A stretch of DNA of 64,000 bases from an uncultured Candidatus Saccharimonadales bacterium (lineage in GTDB: Bacteria; Patescibacteriota; Saccharimonadia; UBA4664), in NCBI GenBank assembly GCA_964467655.1, contig CAYXSN010000003.1:34714-98713 (forward strand), given 5' to 3'. The notes under the pieces were generated by a model. It ran no database searches and was not told where the DNA came from. It saw nothing but the letters and a program-made list of their open reading frames with translations. Positions within the stretch are counted from its first letter, which is position 1, and every line of letters starts with the position of its first letter. Made by a program: the position numbers and the translations under genes. Below, in pieces: positions 37,812-57,100 of the stretch.

Positions 37812-39416
37812 GTGTCAAACAATCCCGAGCAAACTCACCAGAGCGCTGAGCGGCAGATACCGCAGCCCCAGGTCGAATACCAGGCCTTGGCCGAGCAGCT
37901 CGAACAAGCCGTCGAGCAAAATATCGTCCTCACCAACGCCGAAGATGAACTTGATGAAACAGATGTTCAAGCAGCCATCGATGCTATTCCGGGACTGCAA
38001 CTGCTCAAACAGTTAGGCGCCAGACACACCAAGGAGGCTGGTCGGGTCCGTGAAGGAGGCCTCTATCGGCCAAATCCCAATATATTAAACACCGAAAAAC
38101 CATTTATCGAGATTATGTCTGCCCAGGCTAATTTGGAGCAAGGACGCAGCACATACCTAAAGTCTGGCGCCGATAGTTATCTGCGAACACTGCAGTACAG
38201 TAGCCAGCCCCTGACCGCTGAAGATATTTGGCTGACCCAAATATCACTTTCTAGCTACAATCCGGCGGCACTCAATGCCTACGGACTACCCGAAAGCACC
38301 AGCCGCCCGCAATTTGAGCATTTCAAAAATCAAGTTAAAGCCTGTTTGGCAGATTACCTGGAATTCTTAAAGCCTCAAGGGTCTTCGGACTTCCTCGACA
38401 AACAAACTATTCCTTTCGAAGATCTCAATGCCGTCCATCAACCCGCAGACGTATCGCCCGAACTCCATGATCTCCTCACTGAAAGAGCCAGGATTCAGCA
38501 AGCGATGTACGAATTATTGACGGAGCACCACCAAGCCACCGCCGCTCAAAGCACCACAGACCGGTCATTGGCCGACCAAACTAAACGTACCCGAACCGCC
38601 CGCCAGCAGCTCGAAGGCACACAGCCAGAGCGAAGCCAGGAAACCCTCTCCGACCCAGAGCAACAGCTCATAGATCAAGCCCTGGCTGCAGCTCGCGGCC
38701 AGACGTATGTAAACACTGATATGGTCGGCAGCGTCGAGTTAACTTCGAGTTCAGGCTCATCAGACAAACGCCTGACAGATGTTGGCTATCAATATTTCAG
38801 CGATATTCCACACGCAGCCGCATACACGGCTGTAATCAGAAACGAAATTCTGGATACCCATAGGCAAACTACGCGAGAACTACCCCAGACACTCGCTGAA
38901 TCTGTTATCTTAACCCCGGCAAACGAGGACATTACCGAAACTACTGAGCACGAAGTTAAGGTACCTGGACTGAGAGGGTTCTTCGGACAAACCAGAACTG
39001 TCTCGGAAACCACAGTGACAGGACAAAGGCCAAGAGCAATCACAAACCTCGCTACCGGCGAAACGGAGCCAGGTATATACCTAGACTATCAGTTCAAGCC
39101 AACAAGAGAGATTGGCGACAGTATCGACTATAAGTGTAGCGACGGACGATCAGGTAACTACCTGCTTTGCCGGGTTCTCATTCCGGAATCCGTTGCCAAC
39201 GAGCTACAGGCGGCTATCATAAACAAGCCAACCATTGTTCGCGAATTAGTACACCAACTACTTGTCCAAAACGGGGGATTACCGGAAGACTTCTGGGAAG
39301 GAACCGACCAAAGGCGAGCTTATCCGGTCAGGCCCGCATACGAAAAGCTACCCACAAGCTGGACAGTGGCCCTACGTACGGCGGACCAAGCCTGGCATGA
39401 GCTGCCAACCAGTTAG
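37812..39416 (+). CDS. Hypothetical protein (534 aa, acidic and Gln-rich, no transmembrane helix)
   Basis: Long clean ORF 14 bp downstream of pgi. No family motif recognised. Confidence 0.45.
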   Translation: MSNNPEQTHQSAERQIPQPQVEYQALAEQLEQAVEQNIVLTNAEDELDETDVQAAIDAIPGLQLLKQLGARHTKEAGRVREGGLYRPNPNILNTEKPFIEIMSAQANLEQGRSTYLKSGADSYLRTLQYSSQPLTAEDIWLTQISLSSYNPAALNAYGLPESTSRPQFEHFKNQVKACLADYLEFLKPQGSSDFLDKQTIPFEDLNAVHQPADVSPELHDLLTERARIQQAMYELLTEHHQATAAQSTTDRSLADQTKRTRTARQQLEGTQPERSQETLSDPEQQLIDQALAAARGQTYVNTDMVGSVELTSSSGSSDKRLTDVGYQYFSDIPHAAAYTAVIRNEILDTHRQTTRELPQTLAESVILTPANEDITETTEHEVKVPGLRGFFGQTRTVSETTVTGQRPRAITNLATGETEPGIYLDYQFKPTREIGDSIDYKCSDGRSGNYLLCRVLIPESVANELQAAIINKPTIVRELVHQLLVQNGGLPEDFWEGTDQRRAYPVRPAYEKLPTSWTVALRTADQAWHELPTS

Positions 39417-40189
39417 GTTTTTTGCAAGATCTGTTGCCTCGCCCGAATCTGGCGCAGCGCTGTCAGAGCCCGCCAGCTATCCTGCCAGGTATCAACCTTA
39501 CTCTCCCGCTGAGGAAACCGCTTTTCCACCCAATGAATCGGCACTTCAGCCACTTCCAGATGTTTGGTACGCGCCAAGACGACGAGTTCAGTATCAAGGA
39601 ACCAGCCGGATTGCCGGCAATCGTCCACCAGCACCTCAACCGCCGCCGGACTCAAAGCCTTAACGGCGCACTGGGAATCGCTCACCCGCACCCCAAACAT
39701 GAGAAAATTCATCGCCCTGAGCCCCAGCGTCATCAAGCGCCGGTGCCAGGGCCGATACCCAGTCCGATGACTCATTACCAAATCGGCGCCATAATGCAGC
39801 GGCGCCAATACCAGAGCCAGATCTTTCATATCACAGGGCAGATCTACATCAATGTACAGGTACGTCTTGGCCTCAAGAGTAGCCATCACTTCGCGCAAAG
39901 CCAATCCACGGCCTTTCGCTCGACAAACAACCAATCTGACCAGCTCCCCGTACTTCGCTTCCAACTGCCTGCCAGTTGCCTCTGTGGCATCGGTCGAGCC
40001 ATTGCTCGCTATCACAATCTGCCACCGGCTGGTCCCCGGGAGAGCCGTTAGGCCTTGCACTAACATCGCAATCGCCTCGGTCAAGACTATGGCTTCGTTA
40101 TACACCGGCACCACGCACACGAGATCAAAGATAGCTGGTTCTTTGTGAGTCACCGAGACGCCGCCTGCCTCAGATCGTACACCCACCAA
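39413..40189 (-). CDS. Family-2 glycosyltransferase (polyprenol-phosphate sugar transferase-like)
   Basis: VVPVYNEA N-terminal motif, then an acidic DxD region (YIDVDLPCD). Confidence 0.7.
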   Translation of the reverse strand: MVGVRSEAGGVSVTHKEPAIFDLVCVVPVYNEAIVLTEAIAMLVQGLTALPGTSRWQIVIASNGSTDATEATGRQLEAKYGELVRLVVCRAKGRGLALREVMATLEAKTYLYIDVDLPCDMKDLALVLAPLHYGADLVMSHRTGYRPWHRRLMTLGLRAMNFLMFGVRVSDSQCAVKALSPAAVEVLVDDCRQSGWFLDTELVVLARTKHLEVAEVPIHWVEKRFPQRESKVDTWQDSWRALTALRQIRARQQILQKT

Positions 40190-42063
40190 CCACCCTCATT
40201 CGCAAACAACGTGTAGTGATCAGTGAAAAATTGTTGGTTGACTTGGTTCGACCAGATTTCGGCATCACTAAACGCCGCAAAACCTAAACCATAGTGAGCG
40301 ATCAGCTCTTGCGCACCACTCTCTCCACGCAGCATAATGCCTCGATCGGTATAAGTCTGAATCCAATTACCATCATACAAGTTATACCAGCCAGCAAATG
40401 TCATGAGCACTTTACGGTCCGCTAGCATCGTAATTGGATGGTTATGTCGATCACCGACCAAGACATAGGCGTCAGTCGGCAGGCTTGCCTGCATATGCTG
40501 TCCGAAGCGTACTTCGTCGGCGCTCAAGAGTTCATACGTTTGCCGGGGTGCCGCCAGCACCAGCAGGCAGAATCCCATAGCGGTTAAGCTCAACATGAGG
40601 CCCCCAACCGCCAAGCGCCCCCACCAGGTTCTTAGCCAGGGCGCCATAATGCCAGCCGCCACAATCATAACCAGCCAAAAAGCGTACTCAAAGAACTTCA
40701 TATTGTCCCACATACTCGGCTGGAAGACGTACACGTTGCAAACAGCGAATATGCCGGTCGCCGCCAGGTACACTACCCAAAGCTCAGCTTTCGCCCGAAT
40801 CCGTCGCAACCAAAACCATCCACCCACAAGTACCACAAACAACCAGCCAGTATTAACTAGCCAAAAAGCCCACCAGTTAGCTGTGGGATCAGGATAAAAA
40901 TCAGCCATCTTCCAGCCCCAAATCCAGTGGCTGAAACCACTATGGTAGGTCGTGCTAAACTGCCAGATAATTTGCGGCAACGCCACAGCCAAGCCCGTGC
41001 CAATCATCAACCACCAACCAGCAGGCACCCGGTAGCGCGACCACCACATGATGCCCGTCGCCAATGCCAGCCCACCGACACTCACCATGAAGCTGTGGGT
41101 GTGTACCAGCGGCATCAATCCCAACACAACTCCCGCCACCACGGCTCCGACCTGTCGGGTCCGCACCGCCCGCTGTTTGCGCTGTCGCCACAGCTCCAAT
41201 GCCACAGTCATAACCACAATGAACAAAGGCATACCAAACAAATAAGCCCGCTGGGGTAGGGGATGAGAATACATAAAATTCAGGTAGTTGTCACCGATGT
41301 GTCTGATCTCAGTCAGAAACGCCTCATAGCCTTGAGTAACCAGTACTTTGCCAACCCGCCAGCCGCTAGTCGTCGAGCCGGAGAATACGATCATCAGCCA
41401 GCTCAAAAAAGCTGCCCGGGCCGAGCCCAGCAGCCGGTAGGCAAAACTAAACATCAGCTGAAGCAACGCCAGTAACATGATTGCCGATGGCACCATCAGA
41501 CTGACGGTCCAATTACCGCCCAGCCGGCGACTCACTGCCGACCACAAGTCGCTCATAATCGGATAGGTGAGAGCTACTTGCTTATAAACCGGCGATATCA
41601 GATCAAGCTTGTCACCGAGCGAAAACTGATTCGTCAAACTCACGTGCAGGGGAGCATCGCCCCACACATTGCCATTGGCATACCACACGCCGTCTGCCCC
41701 CGGAAATTGGTAGCTCACAACCGTCAACCACATGAGCCAGCCGGCTACCGGTACCGCTACCAGCCAACCCAGGACCATACCCAGCCGGCTATGAGTGTAG
41801 GGTAAGCTCGTCACATGGCAACGACGGGGCAAGCGCCACCAGCTCAAAGCCATAGCCAAAAGCAAGAGAGAGGGCATCACGGTCATGGTCAGGTTCCAGC
41901 CGACAGTTACCGCCCCAGCAAAAAACACCCAAGCGCACAAAGCAAACCCAATCGCCACACTGGCTGCCAAGGCCTCCAATCGTCGCCACGTCACCGGCAG
42001 CTGGCGCACCACCTGCCAGCCCACAGCTACCGCCAATATTTGCAGTACCACAGCCCACAACAT
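40150..42063 (-). CDS. Large polytopic membrane protein (putative GT-C-like glycosyltransferase/polymerase)
   Basis: 637 aa with at least 14 transmembrane helices. Overlaps the downstream GT2 gene by 40 bp. Confidence 0.5.
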   Translation of the reverse strand: MLWAVVLQILAVAVGWQVVRQLPVTWRRLEALAASVAIGFALCAWVFFAGAVTVGWNLTMTVMPSLLLLAMALSWWRLPRRCHVTSLPYTHSRLGMVLGWLVAVPVAGWLMWLTVVSYQFPGADGVWYANGNVWGDAPLHVSLTNQFSLGDKLDLISPVYKQVALTYPIMSDLWSAVSRRLGGNWTVSLMVPSAIMLLALLQLMFSFAYRLLGSARAAFLSWLMIVFSGSTTSGWRVGKVLVTQGYEAFLTEIRHIGDNYLNFMYSHPLPQRAYLFGMPLFIVVMTVALELWRQRKQRAVRTRQVGAVVAGVVLGLMPLVHTHSFMVSVGGLALATGIMWWSRYRVPAGWWLMIGTGLAVALPQIIWQFSTTYHSGFSHWIWGWKMADFYPDPTANWWAFWLVNTGWLFVVLVGGWFWLRRIRAKAELWVVYLAATGIFAVCNVYVFQPSMWDNMKFFEYAFWLVMIVAAGIMAPWLRTWWGRLAVGGLMLSLTAMGFCLLVLAAPRQTYELLSADEVRFGQHMQASLPTDAYVLVGDRHNHPITMLADRKVLMTFAGWYNLYDGNWIQTYTDRGIMLRGESGAQELIAHYGLGFAAFSDAEIWSNQVNQQFFTDHYTLFANEGGWWVYDLRQAASR

Positions 42064-43240: not shown

Positions 43241-43333
43241 TGGCGGAGAGGGAGAGATTCGAACTCTCGCGGGGGATTACTCCCCCCTACAGGTTTAGCA
43301 AACCCGCCCCTTCAGCCTCTTGGGTACCTCTCC
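43241..43333 (-). tRNA. tRNA-Ser (anticodon GCT), 93 nt with an encoded CCA
   Basis: Reverse complement GGAGAGG-TA-CCC...GGG-CGGGT-TTGCTAA-ACCTG-long variable arm-GAGAG-TTCGAAT-CTCTC-CCTCTCC-G-CCA. Confidence 0.8.
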
Positions 43334-43370: not shown

Positions 43371-44039
43371 CTAGTGCCTTGCCAAGGCCAAGCCCCACAC
43401 CGTGCTCGCCCCAGCCGTCTTTAACACCCGAGCGCATTCATTCAAAGTGGCGCCCGTAGTCACCACGTCGTCTACCACCAGCACCCGCTCGCCGGAAAGA
43501 CCATGCAAACCATAAAACACACCGCCCACTCGCCTTAATCTTTCGGCACGACCCAGACCCAATTGGTGGTCGCTCGACTGCCGCGCCAAGAGCGGCAGAT
43601 AGGGAATACCCGACCGCCGAGCTACCGCTCGGGCCAATAGTTCGCTCTGGTTATAACCTCGCTCACGATAGCGCCCCGGACTGACTGGCACACTAGTAAC
43701 CGCGTCAAAACGCTCCTGCTCCCACAAAGGTTCAAAAAAGCGTGCCAAATCGGGCGCTGCCCACCGCAGAGCCTGAAACTTCAGATCAAGCACCGCCTGC
43801 TTCACAGGTCCGTCGTAGTGCAAAGCCACGCTCACACCAGCCAATTGGTCGACACCACTCAATGCCCGGCTGCAGCACCTCTCACACGTCCGGCCTTGCC
43901 ACGACGCCACGCCGCAGCCGGCACATTGCTGAACCCGCAACCGCCAAGTCTCACCACACGTACGACACAAAGCTGAACCTTCACGACCACATGAGGTACA
44001 TGCCAAGGGCACCAATAGCTGCATCAACCGGCCAATCAT
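43371..44039 (-). CDS. comFC: Competence protein ComF (ComFC): zinc-finger plus PRTase domain
   Basis: N-terminal CxxC...CxxC pairs (CTSCG...CRTCG; CAGCG...CERCC) and C-terminal VLVVDDVVTTGATLNE. Start chosen at the Met 17 equivalent (44039). Confidence 0.75.
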   Translation of the reverse strand: MIGRLMQLLVPLACTSCGREGSALCRTCGETWRLRVQQCAGCGVASWQGRTCERCCSRALSGVDQLAGVSVALHYDGPVKQAVLDLKFQALRWAAPDLARFFEPLWEQERFDAVTSVPVSPGRYRERGYNQSELLARAVARRSGIPYLPLLARQSSDHQLGLGRAERLRRVGGVFYGLHGLSGERVLVVDDVVTTGATLNECARVLKTAGASTVWGLALARH

Positions 44040-44145
44040 ACCTGAAAACCTTGCTTTTCTCCTAAAATTTCTACTATAATAATGCAAAGACGTTCCTTAC
44101 GCCTACTAGTTTGTAGCCTAAATAATTTTTTGGAGAACCCCCGCC

Positions 44146-44580
44146 GTGATGCCAGGCAAGAAATCAGCCCCCGAACCACAAGACAATGTCCTGCAGGACG
44201 ACTTTCTCGACACCCCCATGGAGGGTGACGACGACTGGATGGCTGAAGCCGAGGGTCAACTAGCGGTAGATGTCTACCAGACCAAAGAAAACGTTGTCAT
44301 CAAGGCACCCATCGCCGGCGTCACGCCCGACAAAATCGACATCGAAGTCGCCGAAGATGTCGTCACCATCCGTGGTGAGCGGGTTGAAAACCGCGAAGTC
44401 GACCGCGAGCACTACTACGTCCAAGAGTGCTACTGGGGTGCTTTTAGTCGCTCAGTCATCCTGCCTACCTCCACGATCGCCGAAAAAGCAGCCGCAAGCC
44501 TCAAAGACGGCGTCCTTACCGTCACCATCCCTAAGGTTGCTCAAGACAAGGTCAAAAAGATCAAGGTTAAGCCAGTTTAA
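44146..44580 (+). CDS. Hsp20/alpha-crystallin-family small heat-shock protein
   Basis: Alpha-crystallin domain AVDVYQTKENVVIKAPIAGVTPDKIDIEV...VVTIRGER...GAFSRSVILP. Confidence 0.9.
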   Translation: MMPGKKSAPEPQDNVLQDDFLDTPMEGDDDWMAEAEGQLAVDVYQTKENVVIKAPIAGVTPDKIDIEVAEDVVTIRGERVENREVDREHYYVQECYWGAFSRSVILPTSTIAEKAAASLKDGVLTVTIPKVAQDKVKKIKVKPV

Positions 44581-44603: not shown

Positions 44604-44633
44604 TAAAAAACCCCGGTTTCCCGGGGTTTTTTA
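44604..44633. terminator. Bidirectional rho-independent terminator (aaaaaaccccgg-tttc-ccggggtttttt)
   Basis: Perfect GC stem flanked by an A-run and a T-run. Serves both the hsp20 gene (+) and the convergent pilin-like gene (-). Confidence 0.75.
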
Positions 44634-44652: not shown

Positions 44653-45096
44653 TCAGCCGGTACTCTTAGCCAAGGCGCTAATCACGAACTGGACCAGGGC
44701 AAACGAGATAACAGCTACCACGATACCAATGACGGCGTAAAGGATAGTGTTTTTAGCCTGCTCAACATTGCTCTTCTCACCCTGAGAGATAACGTAGCGC
44801 AAACCGCCGATGATCAGGAAGATGACTGATACGGCACCTACCAGGAACACTAAAGTGTTGGCCACCGTCTGGAAGACGCCGCCTTCGGCGAACAGGTTGT
44901 TGCTCGTACCGTTAGCCTTGGCACAACTGGCACCCGAGTTCAATGGGTCTGCCGAATCGAAGCCGTCAGAACAAGCGGCATACGCCGGGGCGCTCACAGC
45001 CACTGCTGCCGCTACCGTGCCAAACCCGAAGCCAAAGACTAGGGCCAGAGCCTGCAGCGACAACGCTGTTTTCTGGGTTAATGACATGATACTCAT
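44653..45096 (-). CDS. VirB2/TrbC-like pilin-family protein, paralog 1 (signal peptide plus two transmembrane helices)
   Basis: Signal peptide, two Cys residues, then the conserved core LIIGGLRYVISQGE...AKNTILYAVIGIVVA shared with the three downstream paralogs. Confidence 0.6.
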   Translation of the reverse strand: MSIMSLTQKTALSLQALALVFGFGFGTVAAAVAVSAPAYAACSDGFDSADPLNSGASCAKANGTSNNLFAEGGVFQTVANTLVFLVGAVSVIFLIIGGLRYVISQGEKSNVEQAKNTILYAVIGIVVAVISFALVQFVISALAKSTG

Positions 45097-45174
45097 CGAC
45101 AGGTTGTCTCCTTACTATCGTTATGATATTCCAAGTTGGTCTTAGCGTAGCATATGCACAAGCGTAAGCGCAAA

Positions 45175-45498
45175 CTAACCGGCAATGGCTTGGGTCACAA
45201 ACTGAATAATGGCGTAGGCCACGATCGACACCACCACACCAACCACTGCATACAGGATCGTATTCTTAGCTTTGCCGACAGCCCCGGTATCACCTTGAGA
45301 TAACACGTACCGCAAGCCGCCGATAATAATCATAATCACCGACACACTACCCACCACAAACACCAAAATGTTGGCAATGTTAGCGATAATGTTTGATACC
45401 GACAGGTTCGTATTGCAAGCCGTGCCACAGGCGTTTTGAGCACTCTGCCCGATGATGTCTGATGCGTTCGCTAGCATAAAGCTTAAATTGTGTTCCAT
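45175..45498 (-). CDS. VirB2/TrbC-like pilin-family protein, paralog 2
   Basis: IIIGGLRYVLSQGDTGAVGKAKNTILYAVVGVVVS core. 107 aa. Confidence 0.6.
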   Translation of the reverse strand: MEHNLSFMLANASDIIGQSAQNACGTACNTNLSVSNIIANIANILVFVVGSVSVIMIIIGGLRYVLSQGDTGAVGKAKNTILYAVVGVVVSIVAYAIIQFVTQAIAG

Positions 45499-45522
45499 GA
45501 TAATCCTCGTTTCCTTGATACA

Positions 45523-45837
45523 TTAACCAGAATAAAAATCAAACCCGTCGCCAACGTTATGGGTTATAAACCACACAATCATATAAGCCGATGCCGCCAA
45601 TACAATGCCAACTACGGCGTACAAAATGGTGTTCTTGGCCGCCTTAGCTTTGCTGGGGTCGCCTTCAGAAAGAGTAAACTGCACACCCCCATACAATAGA
45701 GCTATCAACGCCAAGCCTCCGATAAGCCCCATGAGCATAAGAGTAAGATTGCTCAGACCACCGCCGATAGTATTTACATCTGTCGGCAAACCAACTTCAT
45801 CAGAGGAAATAGTGGCAGCCAGTTTCAACAAGTTCAT
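45523..45837 (-). CDS. VirB2/TrbC-like pilin-family protein, paralog 3
   Basis: LLYGGVQFTLSEGDPSKAKAAKNTILYAVVGIVLA core. 104 aa. Confidence 0.55.
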   Translation of the reverse strand: MNLLKLAATISSDEVGLPTDVNTIGGGLSNLTLMLMGLIGGLALIALLYGGVQFTLSEGDPSKAKAAKNTILYAVVGIVLAASAYMIVWFITHNVGDGFDFYSG

Positions 45838-46211
45838 CCGGCAATGCCTTTCGTCACAAAATCAACCACTGCATAGGCACCGATCAAGAGCACCAAACCG
45901 ATCACCAGATTGGTCAGAATGTCTTTGGCCCGCTTCACTCGACCGGGATCGCCCATAGAAGTTACATAATATATTGCCGCCACGATGATCATAATGACTG
46001 CCAGCGCCCCTGAAAGGGCAATCAGAATCCTCAAGAGATTGCCCACCAAAACAAAAGCATCCGACACCGCCTTCAGATGGACATTACCTGAGGCATCACA
46101 GTTCAAACCGTCCCATAAACTGGGCAGGCCACCGGTTGTAGTGCCGCACGCTCCGACGGCTTCATCTGCTGGCAGTGCCATAGGCCTCATTATAGGAAGG
46201 GGCGATAGCAA
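45834..46211 (-). CDS. VirB2/TrbC-like pilin-family protein, paralog 4
   Basis: AAIYYVTSMGDPGRVKRAKDILTNLVIGLVLL core, two Cys in the N-terminal region. Overlaps paralog 3 by 4 bp. Confidence 0.55.
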   Translation of the reverse strand: MLSPLPIMRPMALPADEAVGACGTTTGGLPSLWDGLNCDASGNVHLKAVSDAFVLVGNLLRILIALSGALAVIMIIVAAIYYVTSMGDPGRVKRAKDILTNLVIGLVLLIGAYAVVDFVTKGIAG

Positions 46212-46241
46212 AAGTCAAAAAGCTCATGCTACAATAAGCTC

Positions 46242-49200
46242 ATGAAGTCGAGGTGGACTCTCATTGCGCTTATGGCGTGGGCCATTGTGGCACCAGCGCT
46301 CGTTGTTGTTATGCGTCCAGAAACCGCTCAAGCGGGAACACCAGCCTCCATCTTGCCGACCACATGTAACTGGACCAATACCACAACAATTACATGTAGT
46401 GGGTATCCTCAAGATGCCAGTCTAACTGTCACCTTTACACCCGACACGAGAAATCCATCAAACCCTCAACGCAGCTACAATGGCGGTACTGTCGGTACGC
46501 CAGGCGATGGAGGCACATACCAGTCTATTGAAAACGTCAGCGCCAACGGTACCAGTGGCCAATACACCGTCGATGGAACATCGCTCGGAGCCATCACGAT
46601 TGGTAATCAGGCAGCCTCAGGCCGGCCGGTCAACGCCGTCACGCCTGCCGATGCCAATGATGGTGCCGCCGATCCCGACACGGCCGTCAAATGTGACGCC
46701 GGCAAAGGCTTCACGTGGCTCATTTGCGGCACCATCGAGTGGGCCCTCAATGTGATCGATTGGATCAGAAACACCGTGCTCATCCCCATGCTCCAGCAAA
46801 AACCGTTCGACGAAGCTTCACCAGATATCGAAGCCCTCAAAAGCGTCTGGGCGGGCATGCGCAACATCGCCAGCATCGTTCTCATCCTGCTCTTCTTGCT
46901 TATTATCTTTGGGACGGCCATTGGCTACGACAACTACACCATCAAGAAAACCCTGCCCCGCCTAGTAGCCGGCGCCATCCTCATGCCATTGTCCTGGTAC
47001 ATCTGCGTCTTGCTGGTTGACCTCGGCAACATCCTAGGTGTCGGGCTCAAGGATTTAACGGCCCCCTTCATCCCTACACCGATCATTGATTTTAATTCAC
47101 CGATTTCCGAAGCTGTCTACAGCGTCGGTGGTGGTATTTTGCTCGGTGTCACTGGCTTTACCGCCTACACTGGCATGCTCTGGCCGGTATTGCTAGGCAT
47201 GGTCGTTGGCTTGGCCGGCGCCTTTCTCACCCTGGTACTGCGCAACATCTTGATTCTCGTCTTAACGGCCATTAGCCCTTTGGCAATGCTCGCCTACATA
47301 TTGCCCAATACCAAGAAATTCTATGACATGTGGCTGAGCAATTTCCTGCGCTTGATCCTCATGTTCCCTTTTATTATCTTGTTATTCCAAGCTGGCCGCC
47401 TATTTGCCGCCATCGCCGGAGCTGGCACCAATCCTATAAACACAATCTTTGCTCTTGTCGGACTGATGCTACCACTATTCTTAGTACCTTGGAGCTTTAA
47501 GACAGCTGGTCAAGCGTTGTCATTCGGTAGAGGCTACATCGATAAAGCTACTGGCATGGGCAAGCGGTACGGTTCAGACAAAATTGGCAACGCGATTAAG
47601 CGTCAGAGAGACAAAACCCGTGAAGCCAACAAAGCTCTTCGCCAGCATAACGCTATCCAGCGAGCAAAAGACATCGACAAAGAGGCCCCCACCAACCTCG
47701 GAGGTAAACTATCCAATAACGTCCGTCAACGAGTCGCCATGAAAAAAGCCGGGCATGGAGGCTTCCTTGGTGGCAAGGGTAATGTACTGCAGCAGCAAAA
47801 GTTTGAATCAGCGTACAGTGAAGCCGCCGCCACACAAGGCAAGATCGAGGCCGCCAAACTGGCTGGCGCTACCGGCACTAGCGAAACACACAAACAGCGC
47901 ATCGAAGCCGAAACCGCCATGGCACTCAAAGGCATTACCGACGGCCGGGCCAATCGTGCAGGATTCATGCAAGCTGTCGGCGAAGCCAATGGAGCCGAAC
48001 TTCCAGACAAAATGATCAGCTTCGCCCAGGCTAGTTACGCCGCCGGCACCGAATCCAGCCGTAAGAGCAATGCCAAGCTCCTCGGCACAGGAACCGGCGT
48101 TCAAGCCGCTGCCGCTGCGGGCGGTTTAGCTTCAACGGGGGCAATCGTCGCAGACGCCAGAGAAACCCAGATTGATAGCCTCAGTGACGAAAAAGGCCAG
48201 GTGGAAGGCCGCCTGATTGGTCAAAGGCACCTTGAGGACGTTGAACTCCAACGAACTGGCGTTAATCCGGCCACGGCAACGACGGCCCAAAGAGAAGCAG
48301 TCCAAAATAGGTTGCAACGCTATCGCCAAACCGATGCCCGCGTCAAAGCACGAGATACTGTACTTGAAGAAGGCGGGACCAAACGTCAGAGCCAAGCCGA
48401 TTTTACAACTCATGGATACCAAGATGTTGAGGAAGTTGAGGGTTCCGCTGCCCTCGAGCAACGTAGTAAGCTATCTACCACTCGCCAAGTCCGCCGCCAA
48501 CGCGTGGCCATCCAGGGTACAGCCGAGGGTGGCATGAGCGACGCAGATATTGAAATGGCGGCCAGTCGTGAAGCTCGCGAGAGCATTGGCGCCCAGGTCA
48601 TGAAGCAAAGGGTAGGCAACGAGACTGAGAGAGCCGACTTGGCTTCAGGTGACGCTACCCGTCGACCAACCCTCACCAACTCACTGATTGCCGCCCGAGG
48701 CCGGGCCGAAGAAAGCGCTTCCGCTGAGAGCGCCCAACGCACGGCCTACGTCAGATCTGCTCTTGGATACGAAAGCGAAAAACCATCTCGGCCATCGCTC
48801 GAAGAACGTATCCAAGATGCCTCTTTCAAAGCCACAACAGACCAGCGCACCAAAGACCTATCAGTCGGTGAGCGTCTCAGCGAAATCAGCAAGGCCGAAG
48901 ACCGGGTCCTTTTGAGCCAAAAAATCGATCCGGCTACCGCCTCAGCTGGTCAACGAGCCGATGCCAGGGCGAGCATTAGTGGCAAAATTGCCATCCAGGG
49001 CTCAGGGGAAGCCGGTTACAAAATGCGCATGGACATCGCCAAAGCCCGCGGCGAAGTCGAGGGCTTCGAAAAAGGCGTTAAGCAGCTCCAAATCGAAGAA
49101 ACTGCCAAGAACCTGCGCGAGAAAGCCATCGACGCCCATCTGGCTGCCAACACCGGCGCCACCAGAGCCGAAGCCGAAGAGGCTGTCGACAGCAATCCGG

Positions 49201-50633
49201 CCAACGATTTCAAGCGCGAGGCCGAACACAACGTTGAAGCTCTAGCCGCCGGCGCTCCGGCCCATCCCGATACTGTCACCTCGGACCAGGCCAGCCGCAT
49301 GTACCACGACGCTGGCGCCGAAAGCGCCTACACCTCAGCTGCCCAAGCCCAAGCCAATTCCATCGGCCAAGCCGTCGGTAAGGGACAGTCGGTCACAGCT
49401 GCGGTTGCTAACCGTGCGTCGACTAACCTCCTAGAGCTCGCCCGCGCCCACGGAGCAGCTCGTGGCATCACGAATGATGACCAAGCCATGGAGTCGTTCC
49501 TTGATGAACAAGTTCGCCTGACAGGCAGTGGCACGCCTGGTGTAGCCGCCGACCGCGAACAAGCCCGCCAGGCTTTACTCACGCAAATGGCCGCACAGGC
49601 TCAATCGGAAGTCATTTCTGCCGCTACGTTGGCAGGCATCGATAGCGGTGTCCGCAGTGAGGCAGCGGCCCAAGGACAACTTATCTCACAGGAAGAATCC
49701 TACAATTCGCCGACTAAATCCACAGCAGCTGATCAGCTAGAAATGGCTCGAAGAGACGCCAGTACAAACCTGGCCAGCAAAGAAGGAACCGACCAAGCCC
49801 GTTCACGCCAGCCCAAACTGGATTACTCGACAACAGTTGAGTCAACCAGGAAAGAAGCTCTTGACAAGTTCTTTGCTCAGAGAGTCCAAGAATCGGGCCG
49901 CAAATTCGTGATAGATGCCAACACCGGCAAACCAACTCCCGACCGAATCGATACTGCAGCGCCAACCAAAGATAACCAAGCCTCACTTCGTAAAATGGCA
50001 GAAGAAGCCTTCGACACGGGCGACTACGAGACCTTCGCAGCCTGCACCAATGCTTTGGGTCAAAACGGCAGTGGACGTGATATCGTCAGGGAGATTATTG
50101 AATCGAAGTTCGGATACGATGATAAGAACCGTATCAATCCTACCATCGCTGATCAGATCCGCAAAACAGCCAAAGCTAACGGCAACCCTGAATTCGACCC
50201 CGAATCATTCTTTAGTGCTGCAGTTTCGCGAATCAACAAAGATAAAGCACCATACTTATTTAAACCACGGGACGCCGCTTTTGGTAAACTACCTTCAAAT
50301 GAATTTGCGGCTCTCGATGACCGCGGCAAAATGCAGTACTTCCAGTGGGCAAGTGGCAAAGTTGGTACGACCGATGAAGCAAAGATCAGAGGTGAAGCCG
50401 TTTCCAATATGCACGAATCGGTCACCAACAAATCTCTCAAGCCCAATCCGGGCAACGCTGATTTTGATGCCATGTACCGCTACCTCTATGAGATTGATCC
50501 CACTACTAAGGCGGTTATAGGGCCAAATGCAGATAATATGAAGGCTTTTGAGGCACAATTTGGAGGGAATACTGTCAAATTCGGCCAAGCTATCGCCGAT
50601 ATTGAACGCGGCTTTAAATCACATAATGCCTAA
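46242..50633 (+). CDS. VirB6/TrbL/TraG-like polytopic membrane protein with a ~1000-aa Ala/Glu/Arg/Gln-rich C-terminal extension
   Basis: 1463 aa. N-terminal signal peptide, a Cys-containing ectodomain (~170 aa), 6-7 transmembrane helices (~aa 200-460), then a long charged low-complexity tail. Transcribed divergently from the pilin genes. Confidence 0.55.
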   Translation: MKSRWTLIALMAWAIVAPALVVVMRPETAQAGTPASILPTTCNWTNTTTITCSGYPQDASLTVTFTPDTRNPSNPQRSYNGGTVGTPGDGGTYQSIENVSANGTSGQYTVDGTSLGAITIGNQAASGRPVNAVTPADANDGAADPDTAVKCDAGKGFTWLICGTIEWALNVIDWIRNTVLIPMLQQKPFDEASPDIEALKSVWAGMRNIASIVLILLFLLIIFGTAIGYDNYTIKKTLPRLVAGAILMPLSWYICVLLVDLGNILGVGLKDLTAPFIPTPIIDFNSPISEAVYSVGGGILLGVTGFTAYTGMLWPVLLGMVVGLAGAFLTLVLRNILILVLTAISPLAMLAYILPNTKKFYDMWLSNFLRLILMFPFIILLFQAGRLFAAIAGAGTNPINTIFALVGLMLPLFLVPWSFKTAGQALSFGRGYIDKATGMGKRYGSDKIGNAIKRQRDKTREANKALRQHNAIQRAKDIDKEAPTNLGGKLSNNVRQRVAMKKAGHGGFLGGKGNVLQQQKFESAYSEAAATQGKIEAAKLAGATGTSETHKQRIEAETAMALKGITDGRANRAGFMQAVGEANGAELPDKMISFAQASYAAGTESSRKSNAKLLGTGTGVQAAAAAGGLASTGAIVADARETQIDSLSDEKGQVEGRLIGQRHLEDVELQRTGVNPATATTAQREAVQNRLQRYRQTDARVKARDTVLEEGGTKRQSQADFTTHGYQDVEEVEGSAALEQRSKLSTTRQVRRQRVAIQGTAEGGMSDADIEMAASREARESIGAQVMKQRVGNETERADLASGDATRRPTLTNSLIAARGRAEESASAESAQRTAYVRSALGYESEKPSRPSLEERIQDASFKATTDQRTKDLSVGERLSEISKAEDRVLLSQKIDPATASAGQRADARASISGKIAIQGSGEAGYKMRMDIAKARGEVEGFEKGVKQLQIEETAKNLREKAIDAHLAANTGATRAEAEEAVDSNPANDFKREAEHNVEALAAGAPAHPDTVTSDQASRMYHDAGAESAYTSAAQAQANSIGQAVGKGQSVTAAVANRASTNLLELARAHGAARGITNDDQAMESFLDEQVRLTGSGTPGVAADREQARQALLTQMAAQAQSEVISAATLAGIDSGVRSEAAAQGQLISQEESYNSPTKSTAADQLEMARRDASTNLASKEGTDQARSRQPKLDYSTTVESTRKEALDKFFAQRVQESGRKFVIDANTGKPTPDRIDTAAPTKDNQASLRKMAEEAFDTGDYETFAACTNALGQNGSGRDIVREIIESKFGYDDKNRINPTIADQIRKTAKANGNPEFDPESFFSAAVSRINKDKAPYLFKPRDAAFGKLPSNEFAALDDRGKMQYFQWASGKVGTTDEAKIRGEAVSNMHESVTNKSLKPNPGNADFDAMYRYLYEIDPTTKAVIGPNADNMKAFEAQFGGNTVKFGQAIADIERGFKSHNA

Positions 50634-50735: not shown

Positions 50736-51560
50736 ATGGGACAATACACCGTACCGCAAAACGTTGAAGCCGAAGACCATATCTTAGGCCCGCTAACGTT
50801 CAGGCAGTTCATCTACATGATGATCGGCCTGGGCTGGGTGATTATTACCTTCGCCTTGTTCCGCAAACTGATTGCGGCCTTCATTGTCATTGGTGTGCCA
50901 CCGACCATTTTGTTCATGCTGCTAGCTTTCTTCAGACGCGACGGCCAGGACTTCGAGCATTTACTGGTAGCTGTGGTCGGCTTTTTTGCCGCTCCCCGCC
51001 AGCGCTTGTGGATCAAAGAAGAAACCATCGAAACCTTCCACATCACGCCCACAGCCAAACAGGCCGAAATCACCCAACGTAACCCACAGCTAGTCATCAG
51101 TGAACTCGAGAAGTTGGCCGTGCTCATTGACTCCCGGGGCTGGAACCTGCCGACTGCCCCCGAGGTCACGCCTCAGCTCATCATGCCCAGCACACCGGCC
51201 TCGGCCCGCATCGTCCAGCCAGACAATACTCCCTCAAACATCACCGCTCCCCACACCGACATGCTCGACCTCCAAAACAGCCCGCTGGCCCAAAACCTCT
51301 CGGTGCTGCTCCAACAGTCAGCCGACCATGTCAAGCAGTCGGCGGTCAGCGGCATGACACCGGGTAGTGAACTACCCGCACCGACTCATTTTGCCACGCC
51401 CGTCAAAAGCATAAGCGGCGTGACAGGCCTCGCCCAAGACGATATACTACGGTTAGCTACCCAGAGTGAGGGAATGAGCATTGCCTCTGTTGCGGCCCAA
51501 GCCACGCGCTTGAGCCCAGACAGTGGCGCAAATGTGGAGCCAGTTGCCAATGCCAGCTAA
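50736..51560 (+). CDS. Small membrane protein (two N-terminal transmembrane helices; VirB3/PrgI-like position) with a Pro/Ser-rich tail
   Basis: FIYMMIGLGWVIITFALF and FIVIGVPPTILFMLLAFF helices lie directly upstream of the VirB4 ORFs. The VirB3 assignment rests on position only. Confidence 0.4.
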   Translation: MGQYTVPQNVEAEDHILGPLTFRQFIYMMIGLGWVIITFALFRKLIAAFIVIGVPPTILFMLLAFFRRDGQDFEHLLVAVVGFFAAPRQRLWIKEETIETFHITPTAKQAEITQRNPQLVISELEKLAVLIDSRGWNLPTAPEVTPQLIMPSTPASARIVQPDNTPSNITAPHTDMLDLQNSPLAQNLSVLLQQSADHVKQSAVSGMTPGSELPAPTHFATPVKSISGVTGLAQDDILRLATQSEGMSIASVAAQATRLSPDSGANVEPVANAS

Positions 51561-52284
51561 TTCAGCCAGCAAAACCGGGAAAAGCACCCAACAAACGCTT
51601 TTGATTTCCGAAATCAAAGATGGCGTGGTAGTTTTGCGTGACGGCTCCATTAGAGGCGTCATCCTCGGGAGTGCCATCAACTTTGAGCTCATGAGCAGTC
51701 AGGAGCAACAAGGCATCGAGATGGCCTACCAGAGCTTCCTCAACTCACTTCATTTCCCAATCCAAATTGTCATTCGTTCAGAACGCATCGACCTGTCAGC
51801 CTACATCGACAGGATGCAAGCCAAGCGCACCGAGCAATCAAACGAGTTGTTGGGTGCCCTCATGGACGATTACATCGCCAATGTTAAATCGCTGGTCGAT
51901 GAGGTCAACATTATGGACAAGCAGATCTACATTGTGGTGCCATATTTCCCCGATGTAGCCACAGGCAAATCACCGGCGCTCGTCAAAAACATCAAAAATG
52001 CATATAGCACCCCACCAGACATTACGATCACCGAAGAAGAATTCAAGGCCTACAAACAAGAATTGTCAGAACGGATGGCCTTGGTCTCGAGCGGCCTCGG
52101 CCAGATCGGCATCAGGGCGCTGGCACTTGGCACCCAAGAACTAGTCGATCTCTACTATACCTGGTACAACCCCGACATCGCCCACAACCAGAAGCTGATT
52201 GAAGCCGAGCAGCTCACGGCTCCCGTGGTCCTCAAAGGCGACGGCCGAGCACCCCACACCACCATTGAGGGAGGTCCTTTCTGA
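51523..52284 (+). CDS. VirB4/TrbE-family N-terminal domain, encoded as a separate ORF
   Basis: LLISEIKDGVVVLRDGSIRGVILGSAINFELMS...GIEMAYQSFLNSLHFPIQIVIRS matches the VirB4 N-terminal region. Its stop overlaps the next start (TGATG). Confidence 0.55.
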   Translation: MAQMWSQLPMPANSASKTGKSTQQTLLISEIKDGVVVLRDGSIRGVILGSAINFELMSSQEQQGIEMAYQSFLNSLHFPIQIVIRSERIDLSAYIDRMQAKRTEQSNELLGALMDDYIANVKSLVDEVNIMDKQIYIVVPYFPDVATGKSPALVKNIKNAYSTPPDITITEEEFKAYKQELSERMALVSSGLGQIGIRALALGTQELVDLYYTWYNPDIAHNQKLIEAEQLTAPVVLKGDGRAPHTTIEGGPF

Positions 52285-54173
52285 TGGGACTTTTTGGCCC
52301 ACCCAAACCCAAAGTTGATCCTGGGGCTCTGGCTGCCTACCAGCAAGCTATGGAGCAACGCGAGGCCGAGCTCATTTACCGCCAAGGCATCATCACCATG
52401 CGCGACCTCATTGCGCCTTCGTCATTGGAGATCGACGCCAATTACCTGAGGATTGGCAAACGCTATTGCAAGACGCTCTACGTGTATGGCTACCCCCGCC
52501 AGGTGTTCACCGGTTGGCTGTCGCCAATTATCAACCTCGATGAAATCATCGACATCTCACTTTACATCTACCCCGTGGAATCGCGCGTCGTTCTCGACAA
52601 CTTACGCAAAAAAGTCACCCAGATGGAAGCTTCGTATGCCATCAACGAAGAGAAAGGCAAAGTGCGCGACCCAGGCCTTGAAGCCGCGCTCCAGGACGCC
52701 GAAGAGCTCAGGGACAAGCTCCAAGTTGGCGAAGAGCGGTTCTTCAGGTTTGGTATGTATCTCACGATGTACGCCGATTCCATTGACGCCATGACCGATC
52801 TCAACCGCAAAATCGAGGGCATTTTCGGCCAGTCGCTGGTGTACACCAAAGCCGCCACCATGCAGATGGAGCAAGGCTTCAACTCCACGAGTCCCTTGGC
52901 CAACGACCAGCTCCAGATCTCGCGCAACATGGACACCGGAGCCCTGTCCACCAGCTTCCCGTTCACTTCAGCTGAACTATCTCGCAACGAAGGCATCCTT
53001 TACGGCCTCAACCGCCACAACAACGGCCTGGTGCTTTTCGACAGGTTCTCGCTCGAAAACGCCAACATGGTGGTATTCGCTAAATCCGGTGCCGGTAAAT
53101 CGTTTTCCATCAAACTTGAAGCCTTGCGCTCTCTCATGATGGGCATCGAAATTATCGTAATTGACCCCGAAAACGAGTACAAAACCCTCTGCGAAGCCGT
53201 TGGCGGCACCTATCTGCGCCTCAGTTTGGCCAGTCAAACTCGCATCAACCCCTTCGACCTGCCGCGAGTATTCGACCAAGATGAAGCCGACAACGCCCTC
53301 CAAGCCAACATTATTACACTGCACGGCCTGTTGCGCCTCATGATCGGTGGCGCCACAGTCTCAAACTCCACCGGCGCCACCAGCGTAACCTCCCTTACTC
53401 CCAGCGAAGACGCCGACCTCGATCTGGCAATCATCAATACCTACGCCCGCGCCGGTATCACCCGCGACCCCCTCACCCACAATGCCACCCCGCCCACCAT
53501 GAACGATCTCTACAATACTCTGGCCTCCATGACGGGCAACGGCCCCGACCTGGCCATGAGGCTACGCAAATTCACCACCGGCACGTTCTCGGGTATTTTT
53601 TCAGAGCAATCAAACGTCGAAATCAACAACCCCTTCCTGGTATTCAACATTCGCGACCTCGAAGACGAACTACGGCCCATCGGCATGTACATCGTGCTCA
53701 ACTACATCTGGAACAAGGTCAAATCAGATCGTCGCAAACGCATCCTAGTAGTCGACGAAGCCTGGCAACTTATGAAGTACGACGACTCAGCCGCCTTCAT
53801 GTTTAGCCTGGCCAAACGGGCCCGCAAATACTTCCTCGGCCTCACCACCATCTCCCAAGACGTCGAGGACTTCTTAAGCAACAAAATGGGCCGGGCCGTG
53901 GTCGCCAACTCATCACTCCAGCTCTTACTCAAGCAAGCCCCTTCAGCCGTCGACATTATTGGCGAAACCTTCAAGCTCACGAACGAAGAAAAAGCCAGGC
54001 TCACCGAATTCCCGGTGGGAGAAGGCTTATTCTTCGCTGGACTCAATCACGTCATCATCAGAGTCCTGGCGTCCGAAACCGAAGCCAGCCTCATTAGCAC
54101 CAATCCAGCCGACAAAGGTCAGGCGCCATCAGCCCCCACTGAAACATCAGCGCCAGCGGAACAAGGAGCATAA
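52284..54173 (+). CDS. virB4: Type IV secretion/conjugation ATPase VirB4 (TrbE/TraE/PrgJ-like), central and C-terminal ATPase region
   Basis: Walker A FAKSGAGKSFSIK and Walker B ILVVDEAWQLM. The VirB4 middle region (LIAPSSLEIDANYLRIGKRYCKTLYVYGYPRQVFTGWL) is also present. 629 aa. Confidence 0.88.
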   Translation: MGLFGPPKPKVDPGALAAYQQAMEQREAELIYRQGIITMRDLIAPSSLEIDANYLRIGKRYCKTLYVYGYPRQVFTGWLSPIINLDEIIDISLYIYPVESRVVLDNLRKKVTQMEASYAINEEKGKVRDPGLEAALQDAEELRDKLQVGEERFFRFGMYLTMYADSIDAMTDLNRKIEGIFGQSLVYTKAATMQMEQGFNSTSPLANDQLQISRNMDTGALSTSFPFTSAELSRNEGILYGLNRHNNGLVLFDRFSLENANMVVFAKSGAGKSFSIKLEALRSLMMGIEIIVIDPENEYKTLCEAVGGTYLRLSLASQTRINPFDLPRVFDQDEADNALQANIITLHGLLRLMIGGATVSNSTGATSVTSLTPSEDADLDLAIINTYARAGITRDPLTHNATPPTMNDLYNTLASMTGNGPDLAMRLRKFTTGTFSGIFSEQSNVEINNPFLVFNIRDLEDELRPIGMYIVLNYIWNKVKSDRRKRILVVDEAWQLMKYDDSAAFMFSLAKRARKYFLGLTTISQDVEDFLSNKMGRAVVANSSLQLLLKQAPSAVDIIGETFKLTNEEKARLTEFPVGEGLFFAGLNHVIIRVLASETEASLISTNPADKGQAPSAPTETSAPAEQGA

Positions 54174-54179
54174 GAGGAA

Positions 54180-57100
54180 ATGGCACTGCGTTCTGCCGCC
54201 GGTCTCAAATCTAGCTCCGGCATGGAGCCACCCCGCCAGACGTTCAAAGATGCTCTGGTAGCCCAGAAAGCTTCAAGTAGCCAGAAAACAACTACCGCCC
54301 AAAAGCCGGTTATGACGCAAATGTCACCGATGGGCGGCAGTCAAACCTCCAAGCCCGACACCATCACTAGACCCCGTAATGAATCAATCAACGAACCCAA
54401 TACGGCGTCCAATACCAGCATCGCACCTTCGTCTCAGGCCGCCGACCTCAAAACCGGAGATAGCAAATTCGATGCCGTCCACGGCGACAACCGCGGTCAG
54501 CAAATGGTCGCCAACGCCGGCACCGCCCGGCCCGAAGCCAATGACGACGCCTGGGCCTCACCCGACGCCACGGCATCCTCCAATGCTGGTGGCCCACCAG
54601 ACTCGGGTGGAAAAGCGGGCGTCATGTCTCCGGGCGCCGATCCAAACCGTGCCAGTCAATCTAGAATACCTGGCAATGATGCCGAGGCCCGAGCCAACTA
54701 CGCCAACAACGTCAGTAACGGCCCGGTCGGCCGCCGGATTGCCGGCAAGACGTTCGATTTTGCCAACCGTCACCGTAAATCGCTGATCTTTGGCGGCGGC
54801 GGCATGGGTATTGTCCTAGCGTTAATCTTTGCCACGCTTGCCTTCTTGCCCCTCAAACTTGAATCATTCATGAATAACGTTATCAGCAACGAAGGCAAGC
54901 GGATGGAGCATTACGCCACGCGGCGCGCCGAGATCATGACCTACCGCTACCTCATGAACGCCGCCAACGGCACTATTGAATCAGACCCTTTGTATACCAG
55001 CTCCAATATCGTCAGGATGATGTGGGGTAACTTCCAGAAAGACAGGTTTATCGAGAAACTCCAGACTTCCAAAGGCATCACAGTGGAAAGGGGTGGCAGC
55101 GCCGGCAGTATCAGATTCACGACCGCCAGTGGCCAAGTAGTGGAAGCGAGTAATCTGAGTCAGCTCATGGACGTCCTCAAAAGCAATCCAGCCGGTACTG
55201 GCATTGAGGCAGAAATTGGCAAGTTCATGGAAAACGAGTACAAATGGTTCCGTATCTTTCAGCGCCGCTCTATCAGATACTACTTAGCCAAAGCTTACGG
55301 TATCAAACGCTGGAGCATCGACAAAAAAGAAGACAAGGTTGACCCGAAGTCCAAGGTACACAGCACCGAAATCCAGGCGCGCGAACTGGCCCTCGATGGA
55401 CCAAATGAAAAAACCATCAATGCCATCGGTTGTGTCGCCGCACCCGAAAACTGCAACGGCGAAGACTCCAATCGCCGCAGTACCGACCCCAATGGCGAAT
55501 CAACAATCGACCCGCCAAATACCACTGGGGGCAATGAAGAAGAGTCCAAAGCTCAGGCCGAAGCCAAAAAAGGTTTGCTTGAGCGCTACCGCAACCTCAA
55601 AACTACTGCCGGCAACAAAATTCTAGCGACCCTCACCGAACTGATTGGTAGTGAAGTGATAGCGAAAGGTATTCTGAAAGCCGTACCCTTCATCGGCTGG
55701 ATCTCGTTTGCGGCCGACATCGACCATTTCATCTGGGGTGGTAGCTGGTCGCAAGTCGGCATCAATCTGCGCGCCTTGCAATACGTAAGCGTCGCCCAAA
55801 CCTGGGCTACCCTCAAAGACCAGATGAAGGCCGATGAGCTGACTGCCAGCCAAATCAATGTGCTTATGCTTATGCTCGACGGCATTGAAAAATCAAACGC
55901 TTTCCAGCGCACCAATTCAGCCAATACCAATGGCGGTGTCACCATCCCGGAAGAAAAACGGGTAGGCAGCGATGGTGCCTTTATCGATCCCGAACCGGCC
56001 GGTCAGGGTATTTGCGGCATTACCTATCCACTGTCAAACGAATACCGGGGCATCCCGGTAAACGGCTTGTCTATTACCAACTACGAACCCTGGACGCTCC
56101 TGTACCGTCGTGTAGTCACAACACCACTGCTGATTGGCGCCGGCAACGTTCACTTTGACCTCTGTACTTTCAGGGCCGTATTCCAGCGTTTTATGGGCGT
56201 CATCATGCTTGGGGTCAAGAACATTCCGGGTGTCGGGCAGTTTATCTCTACATTCCAGACCCTCACTCAGTTTGTTATGCAAACCGAAATCATTCAGCGC
56301 CTCGTCGAGCAGGGCAGCCACTACGTCACGGCCTTCCTCGAACGTGTCTTCGGACTGGTATACAACGGCGAATGGGGGGCGCCACTCGCCAACACCATTG
56401 ACGGTGGCTGGGAAGTAATCACAAATGCCGTCACCCGTGACCACATGGGTGGTAAGGCCATTAGCTATAGCCTCAGCTATGAACAAACCACCCAGTACGC
56501 TCTTGAGGACCAACAGAAACTCAATGCCGAGGGACCCTTTGCTAGTCTGCTCGCTTGGAATACGCCAGGCTCAACCGGCTCTAAACTACTGGCAGCCTTA
56601 CCATCAACCCCATCAGCTCTCGCCAACCGTTTTACCGATCTCGCCAGCAGCCTCTTTTTACACCCCGCCAGTTATTTCAGTAAATTAGCGTACAACTTTA
56701 GTACCGGTAGTCTGGCCGTCGATCCAGCCAGCTTGCGCTCTCCCGCAGGCGTCATGCACATTGGCTTTGATGCTGCCGAGGTCAACGACAGCAACATCTA
56801 CATTGCCGTCAAAGACATCAACGGACCACCAGTCAATGGCGCCTACCCCGGCCAGCCCGACGGCCGCATCGATGAGTACGACTGCATCGAAGGGAGCGGT
56901 AGTGGCGAGAGCTTGCACATAGTCGGTACTACTGACAGGGCCGATGACATCACCAAAACCAACCGCTGCCTCTACGATACCTCAGTGGCCCTACCGCTCT
57001 GCTCCGGCGGCTCCTCCAATGACGACGGGGGACTGGGCCAAGGCGGCGATCCCGGTCCATGTGGCCGTGTCGCTGGCACCTCAGCTACAGGCCAAGCCGG

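Follow-up and report, generated by a model that had tools for sequence, protein, structure and literature searches.

Tandem arrays of pilin genes associated with a type IV secretion system (T4SS) have been described in Patescibacteria, and both the pilin family and the array phenomenon are already published. In the cultured relative Southlakia epibionticum ML1, six tandem genes of the PF18895 family (SEML1_0014-0019) were each scored as essential by transposon sequencing (Tn-seq); a stand-alone seventh pilin gene, SEML1_0024, was non-essential (Wang et al. 2023, Cell, PMC10633639). The divergent gene before these pilins, SEML1_0013, is annotated as TrbL/VirB6-like, and the array is followed by hsp20, comFC (K02242), and tRNA-Ser (SEML1_0020-0022) (PMC10633639). 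A later survey reported 441 arrays of 2-11 pilin genes in 383 Patescibacteria assemblies, most abundantly in Microgenomatia and Saccharimonadia (Quinonero-Coronel et al. 2025, Microb Genom, PMC12102498). The pilins of these arrays had a mean identity of 25% and a maximum of 54%, no relaxase was found, and the T4SS was often located near dnaA; the authors drew a parallel with Bartonella and Anaplasma and suggested a possible adaptation to different hosts (PMC12102498). Here we analyze a four-gene array of this type in a 64-kb stretch of DNA from an uncultured Candidatus Saccharimonadales bacterium (contig CAYXSN010000003.1); the whole stretch is referred to as the window. The array most probably encodes four anciently diverged, non-redundant VirB2-like subunits of a chromosomal, Gram-positive-type T4SS of Saccharimonadia, related to the FATA class of mating-pair formation (MPF) systems (MPF-FATA).

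The locus resembles that of S. epibionticum in several respects. Both belong to Saccharimonadia, carry PF18895 pilins, and lie near the chromosome start. The order of hydrolase, large protein, VirB4, small protein, PrgI, and VirB6-like genes is shared in mirror image, with the pilins on the opposite strand, and in both genomes a convergent hsp20, comF, and tRNA-Ser are found beyond the pilin array. However, the window contains four tandem pilins compared to six in S. epibionticum, and it contains neither the widely conserved subunit that occupies the first position of longer arrays nor an opposite-strand pilin of the SEML1_0024 type. In S. epibionticum, SEML1_0011 and SEML1_0012 are located between the PrgI and VirB6-like genes, whereas in the window the PrgI gene directly follows the VirB6-like gene. 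As judged from the sequences, the genes in the window are orthologs of part of the essential Southlakia array. Compared to the arrays of the 2025 survey (tandem PF18895/PF04956 genes near virB4, low identity, no relaxase found, T4SS near dnaA), nothing essential differs, and the window is another instance.

The genes are numbered in the order of their transcription. A search of the open reading frames (ORFs) with a hidden Markov model (HMM) of the family found exactly four members within the window:

45834-46181, minus strand: gene 1, pilin paralog of 115 aa from the ATG at 46181 (PF18895, 34.4 bits, E 2.3e-8)
45523-45837, minus strand: gene 2, pilin paralog of 104 aa (PF18895, 47.2 bits, E 2.3e-12)
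45175-45498, minus strand: gene 3, pilin paralog of 107 aa (PF18895, 36.9 bits)
44653-45096, minus strand: gene 4, pilin paralog of 147 aa, the last gene of the array (PF18895, 36.3 bits)

The original prediction, made from the sequence of the window, described four adjacent minus-strand ORFs, a 4-bp overlap between two of them, and divergent transcription from a VirB6-like gene. Inspection of the ORF listing confirmed all three: the four ORFs are present, ORFs 45523-45837 and 45834-46211 (genes 2 and 1) share positions 45834-45837, and the VirB6-like gene (1463 aa) starts at 46242 on the opposite strand. Identical genes were called in several independent metagenome assemblies, and the four ORFs are far from chance ORFs. 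The maximal ORF of gene 1 (45834-46211, 125 aa) begins with a TTG at 46211. The true start is most likely the ATG at 46181, which gives a protein of 115 aa, because gene callers use this start in public metagenome assemblies and because the promoter described below is located inside the longer ORF.

An alignment of the four proteins with MAFFT revealed a C-terminal core of two hydrophobic helices and a short loop, as predicted, and divergent N-terminal segments. The predicted core motif occurs exactly in the 147-aa and 107-aa paralogs, and the core of the latter (gene 3) is the nearest of the four to the family consensus; the 104-aa and 125-aa paralogs deviate from the motif (LYGGVQFTLSEGD...AKNTILYAVVGIVL and IVAAIYYVTSMGD...AKDILTNLVIGLVL). 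Cysteines had been predicted in the divergent N-termini. A pair is present in the N-terminal segments of gene 1 (an acidic N-tail with CGTTTGG...LNCD, followed by the two hydrophobic helices), gene 3 (an N-tail with CGTAC), and gene 4 (in the mature N-terminus); gene 2 has no Cys. The signal peptide ascribed to at least one paralog was recovered in gene 4 only, which has three hydrophobic segments and a predicted Sec-type signal peptide (a hydrophobic stretch at residues 10-38, then cleavage between AYA and AC). Genes 1-3 have no signal peptide, and none is possible for them, because their stop-to-stop frames reach at most 8-10 codons further upstream.

All four genes scored above the gathering cut-off of PF18895 T4SS_pilin (26.6 bits), with 34.4-47.2 bits and E values of 2e-8 to 2e-12. 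A database search found 304 homologs of gene 3; PF18895 was present in all 120 that were listed, and the names among these included 'pilin [Candidatus Saccharimonadia]' and 'type IV secretion system pilin'. When the 121 aligned homologs of the family alignment (A2) were scanned against Pfam, PF18895 matched 121 of 121, PF04956 TrbC/VirB2 matched 59 of 121 at E <= 0.01 (best 5e-8), and DUF6112 matched 30. Together with the neighboring T4SS genes, these matches support the predicted assignment as VirB2/TrbC-type T4SS pilin paralogs beside a VirB6-like gene. Pfam models and gene context, not a fold match, are the basis of the link to VirB2.

VirB2-type pilins polymerize with phospholipid into an extracellular pilus, and T-pilin and TrbC are cyclized. 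Like VirB2/TrbC (the Agrobacterium T-pilin, PF04956), the proteins of the window are small, with two hydrophobic helices and a short basic loop, and their genes lie together with virB3, virB4, and virB6; weak matches to PF04956 occur in half of the family. In contrast to the single major VirB2 pilin of Gram-negative MPF-T systems, the window encodes several paralogs, and its host is a monoderm with a Gram-positive-type T4SS that, unlike MPF-T, is without VirB5 and VirB7-10. The AlphaFold2 model of gene 3 is a helical hairpin (H34-66 and H71-106, predicted local distance difference test score > 90) with a low-confidence helix N-terminal to it. The sequences show acidic N-tails and loops with a net charge of +1 to +2, for which the positive-inside rule predicts a topology with both termini outside and the loop inside, which is that of VirB2. 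In alignment A2, the most conserved part of the family, above the helices, is the loop with its flanks (RY.xSxGD......AKNTILYA); in the 107-aa protein, the conserved residues are located at about residues 60-80 (R63, Y64, S67, G69, D70, A77, K78, and T80). The conservation of this predicted cytoplasmic loop may point to a fixed contact surface for the assembly machinery or for lipid head-groups.

For the comparison between genomes, 185,579 species-representative genomes were scanned with the family alignment, which resulted in 595 confirmed loci. The best 80 of these 595 loci, numbered with the prefix L, are almost all from Saccharimonadia/Saccharibacteria, and all of their ORFs were searched with the family HMM. 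Exact and near-exact copies of the locus are present in several metagenome assemblies, and the complete 1.32-Mb genome of a close relative (accession # CP064960.1) has the same four pilin genes in the same synteny. The positional orthologs in close relatives are 79-100% identical over the whole protein, compared to 23-36% between neighbors within the window (30-56% for the core). Gene 4 is the most conserved, with 92-100% identity to its orthologs in close relatives, in which its mature N-terminus is nearly invariant. Estimates of the ratio of nonsynonymous to synonymous substitutions (dN/dS) against two relatives were 0.04-0.07 for genes 1-3 and 0.01-0.02 for gene 4; these values are approximate because dS is saturated.

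In the next closest group of loci (L007-L012), which have five pilin genes, genes 1-4 of the window find their best hits collinearly at positions 2-5, and collinearity holds through L013. The hydrophobic cores of the four pilins are only 36-76% identical to those of their positional orthologs in L007, where the gene 1 motif CGT.TG...L.DGL.CD is kept. Among all pairs of six-gene arrays, best hits were collinear in 93% at a mean identity of 50-70% and in 65% at a mean identity below 50%; 17% are expected by chance. Gene 4 and position 6 are reciprocal best hits in 41 of the 46 six-gene arrays, and gene 3 and position 5 in 21. Unlike these last two genes, genes 1 and 2 could not be assigned cleanly by reciprocal best hits to positions in the distant six-gene arrays. 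The high identity of positional orthologs relative to that of neighbors, the fixed order, and the low dN/dS values argue for ancient, position-specific paralogs. The duplications are therefore old, the order of the genes is fixed, and each paralog is retained in its own right.

Tandem arrays are typical of the 80 loci, across which gene order is conserved. The main array as defined usually has six and up to eight genes, and the longest run (L082) consists of eight genes in tandem and a ninth on the opposite strand. The clade of the window has four genes, L007-L012 have five, and the other loci have six to eight. Copy number thus varies between relatives, as the original prediction had asked of them; however, the differences are stable lineage-level states, not the rapid paralog turnover that it had envisaged. 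Antigenic variation was not supported either, given the conserved positional orthologs and dN/dS values of 0.01-0.07. The data are consistent with the functional diversification or heteropolymeric assembly that it had offered as alternatives.

In 34 of the 46 six-gene arrays, position 1 and the additional first pilin of L007 (8841-9311; the first genes of L008-L012 are alike) are reciprocal best hits. This subunit, which has a signal peptide and contains several Cys, carries an FLVPGG(V/I)L motif at its C-terminus. It was not found in the window or in close relatives, where tblastn returned only the other paralogs. In six-gene arrays, most positions have three hydrophobic segments; in the window, only one of the four genes has a signal peptide. 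Many loci also have a further member of the pilin family, encoded on the opposite strand 1.5-3 kb past the array, whose counterpart in S. epibionticum is SEML1_0024 and of which there is none in the window. Examples are:

L016, 12409-12870, minus strand: extra opposite-strand pilin
L025, 11852-12343, minus strand: extra opposite-strand pilin
L081, 12076-12546, minus strand: extra opposite-strand pilin

The linkage of the pilins to virB6, virB3, and virB4 is conserved across Saccharimonadia. In the window, the array is about 6 kb from virB4, within the following neighborhood:

43241-43333: tRNA-Ser
43371-44087: comF-like phosphoribosyltransferase gene
44146-44580: hsp20, convergent with the pilin array
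46242-50633, plus strand: VirB6/TrbL-like polytopic membrane protein of 1463 aa, with a signal peptide and a hydrophilic C-terminal extension of ~1000 aa
50736-51560, plus strand: PrgI-family (VirB3-like) protein (PF12666, 49.7 bits, E 5.4e-13)
51550-52284, plus strand: TraC-like small protein of 244 aa (precomputed PF26593)
52284-54173, plus strand: VirB4-type ATPase (PF19044 TraG P-loop, 91 bits, plus AAA_10 and DUF87)
54180-57977, plus strand: 1265-aa protein of the T4SS operon with no Pfam match, in the position of SEML1_0007, which is essential in S. epibionticum
57965-59260, plus strand: cell-wall hydrolase (lysozyme-like PF18013, 86 bits, and VanY D,D-peptidase PF02557, 35 bits)
59288-60775: 495-aa protein of the T4SS operon with no Pfam match
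61080-62141, minus strand: recF-like gene, which together with dnaN and dnaA is located 15-19 kb from the array
62138-63247, minus strand: dnaN
63540-63896, minus strand: C-terminal DNA-binding domain of dnaA; the gene runs off the window

The cell-wall hydrolase is a functional analogue of VirB1, and the 244-aa protein is possibly a TrsD-type partner of VirB4. Two assignments differ between sources. A protein identical to the VirB6-like protein has PF19590 TrbL_3 in the precomputed Pfam annotation, whereas our own hmmscan of the 1463-aa protein found no Pfam family; likewise, our Pfam scan of the 244-aa protein gave no match, in discrepancy with the precomputed PF26593. The VirB6-like protein is unusually long (1463 aa versus 810 aa in L007, at 6340-8772; see also L087, 4872-9253), and its C-terminal extension is rich in Ala, Gln, and Glu. 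In CP064960.1 the VirB6-like gene is broken up into five ORFs, either by frameshifts in the assembly or by decay.

The locus is a chromosomal T4SS near the replication origin and not a conjugative element. A mobile element (integrative and conjugative element) was rejected based on its neighbors (dnaA, dnaN, recF, valS, pgi, groEL, and murein genes) and on the scan for relaxase and coupling-protein families: neither was found among the 43 window ORFs of at least 144 aa that were scanned, several of which had no Pfam match. Elsewhere the window carries housekeeping genes (groEL, two phosphoglucomutases, a Mur ligase, FemAB-family genes, tsaD, valS, and pgi). GC skew is negative over all 64 kb, which fits an origin just past the right end, and the 290-bp spacer between dnaA and dnaN (63248-63539) may hold oriC elements. 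Five large ORFs have no Pfam match: 54180-57977, 59288-60775, 40150-42063, 37812-39416, and 31070-32476 (1265, 495, 637, 534, and 468 aa, respectively); the first two belong to the T4SS operon and may encode T4SS components or substrates that are specific to the lineage. At 6880-7497, 8357-9103, 11883-12950, and 14941-15924 are prephenate dehydratase and dehydrogenase genes and two FemAB-family genes; the latter, which are peptidoglycan-bridge genes, adjoin the Mur ligase. The organism belongs to a group that is generally described as being without amino-acid biosynthesis.

The four pilin genes form one operon, with tight spacing, one near-consensus promoter, and one strong terminator:

46189-46218, minus strand: sigma-70-like promoter (TTGACT, 18-nt spacer, TATAAT; 11 of 12 consensus matches)
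44605-44626, either strand: bidirectional intrinsic terminator (CCCCGG-GAAA-CCGGGG, flanked by A6 and T6)

The promoter (46218-46189) lies inside the longer ORF of gene 1. Its -10 box ends 7 nt upstream of the ATG of this gene (46181), which suggests an mRNA that is leaderless or has a very short leader; no Shine-Dalgarno sequence was found at this ATG, and genes 3 and 4 have AGGA/AAGGAG upstream. Overall, promoter-like sites are no more numerous in the region than in shuffled sequences, which makes this promoter suggestive only. The two divergent T4SS operons are about 60 bp apart (46181-46242). The terminator hairpin is located 27 nt past the stop codon of gene 4 and is common to the pilin operon and the convergent hsp20. 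It was missed by a terminator scanner and was confirmed by folding: the RNA folds at -26.1 kcal/mol (z = -5.7), and none of 200 shuffles folds as well.

Several observations weigh against four non-redundant VirB2-like subunits. None of the four proteins reaches the PF04956 cut-off (27.9 bits), and only gene 2 matches this model at all (20.3 bits, E 6e-4, sub-threshold); given the matches across the family, a relationship to PF04956 is plausible, although by the curated cut-off the four proteins are not members. We used hhalign to compare A2 to seven alphaproteobacterial VirB2/TrbC proteins from annotated plasmids, which were retrieved with an Agrobacterium VirB2 sequence that served as a probe only. 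The match covers 60 columns in the expected helix-loop-helix register; however, at E = 0.09 it is not significant. A search of the family profile against the sequences in the PDB returned only chance-level transmembrane segments of ABC transporters and no pilin, and Foldseek against the PDB returned no match at E <= 0.001. Canonical VirB2, TrbC, and TraA have a leader peptide, whereas three of the four genes in the window do not. The saturation of dS leaves the dN/dS values approximate, the Tn-seq essentiality of the upstream pilin genes in Southlakia could reflect polar effects and few insertion sites, and gene 4 is only a candidate for the major subunit. A 2025 review calls a possible pilus 'intriguing' but unobserved in Patescibacteria (PMC12857230).

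That the proteins are membrane proteins of two helices unrelated to pilins (for example, holins, immunity proteins of bacteriocins, or subunits of transporters), which merely happen to be encoded beside T4SS genes, is extremely improbable. Fold searches do not distinguish the pilin hairpin from any other helical hairpin, some homologs carry public names of transporter or oxidase subunits, and the pilins in the window have weak matches to DctQ, TMD0_ABC, and other families. However, these matches are far below the cut-offs, whereas PF18895 is above its own in 4 of 4 window genes and matches 121 of 121 family members; the Pfam scan assigned none of the four pilins to a holin or immunity family, an assignment that the original prediction had named as one that would count against it, and the virB6/virB3/virB4 linkage is conserved. 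The holin, immunity-protein, and transporter-subunit readings are effectively refuted by the PF18895 matches. It is also quite improbable that the paralogs are variants that can replace one another and serve antigenic or host-range variation, generated by recurrent duplication and turnover with diversifying N-terminal ectodomains. Tandem divergent virB2-like genes in Anaplasma phagocytophilum and Bartonella, which likewise belong to a T4SS for host interaction rather than conjugation, are read in this way, and the 2025 survey suggests that the arrays may aid adaptation to different hosts (PMC12102498). The low identity within the array (23-36%), N-terminal segments that are more divergent between paralogs than the cores and in three of four orthologs somewhat less conserved than the core in close relatives, and copy numbers from 4 to 9 between lineages would all fit. 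In contrast, the positional orthologs remain one-to-one across genomes whose pilins are only 36-76% identical, gene order is kept far above chance, dN/dS is 0.01-0.07 for all four genes, and the N-terminus of gene 4 and the N-terminal motif of gene 1 persist. All six tandem genes were scored as essential in S. epibionticum (PMC10633639). Unlike the Anaplasma and Bartonella paralogs, those of the window are ancient, fixed in order, and under strong purifying selection, which points away from the host-adaptation or antigenic reading of the survey (PMC12102498).

A closer competitor, although still unlikely, is that the proteins are true T4SS_pilin members that form no extracellular filament and are instead stoichiometric parts of a translocation channel or stalk in the membrane. 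Agrobacterium VirB2 is needed for substrate transfer independently of pilus production. A T4SS pilus has never been seen in Patescibacteria (PMC12857230), and Gram-positive-type T4SSs normally function without pili (PMC12102498, PMC10633639). The most conserved segment is the predicted cytoplasmic loop, which fits a fixed machinery interface, and distinct subunits that occur as a constant set in one order are reminiscent of the components of a complex. On the other hand, the family is similar to polymerizing pilins in size, topology, and Pfam relationship, and the predicted extracellular N-tails with paired Cys suggest exposed, stabilized surfaces. The data do not separate a short stalk from a long pilus.

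Taking the array to be four non-redundant VirB2-like subunits, each pilin would insert in the membrane with its N- and C-termini outside, and the short basic loop (RY.xSxGD......AKNT) would face the cytoplasm. The VirB4, VirB3-like, and VirB6-like machinery would extract the subunits from the membrane and assemble them into a pilus-like or conduit structure, which would pass through the wall where the lysozyme/VanY hydrolase opens it and contact the host bacterium. The four paralogs would have distinct structural roles, for example, one major subunit together with initiator, tip, or adaptor subunits, and would not be interchangeable. Gene 4 is the candidate major subunit because it is more conserved than the other three and alone has a signal peptide. 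More tentatively, and with somewhat less confidence than doubt, the arrays may be obligately heteromeric sets of ordered, specialized subunits, much as major and minor pilins make up type IV pili or the pseudopili of type II secretion. This clade would have reduced the set to four by the loss of the otherwise conserved position 1. If so, the four genes would represent the minimal set of subunits for a T4SS pilus or conduit in a monoderm, and three of the subunits would enter the membrane without a signal peptide.

The contribution of this locus is incremental: it is a reduced four-gene example, from an environmental lineage, of a published phenomenon. It adds the positional orthology and purifying selection, the four-gene state, three genes without a signal peptide, and a promoter that likely produces a short-leader or leaderless mRNA. 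Few envelope machines have been shown to be essential for Saccharibacteria to grow as epibionts, and the T4SS with its pilin array is one of them; paralogs that are ancient, fixed in order, and under strong purifying selection narrow the hypotheses for its function toward a multi-subunit assembly and away from antigenic variation.

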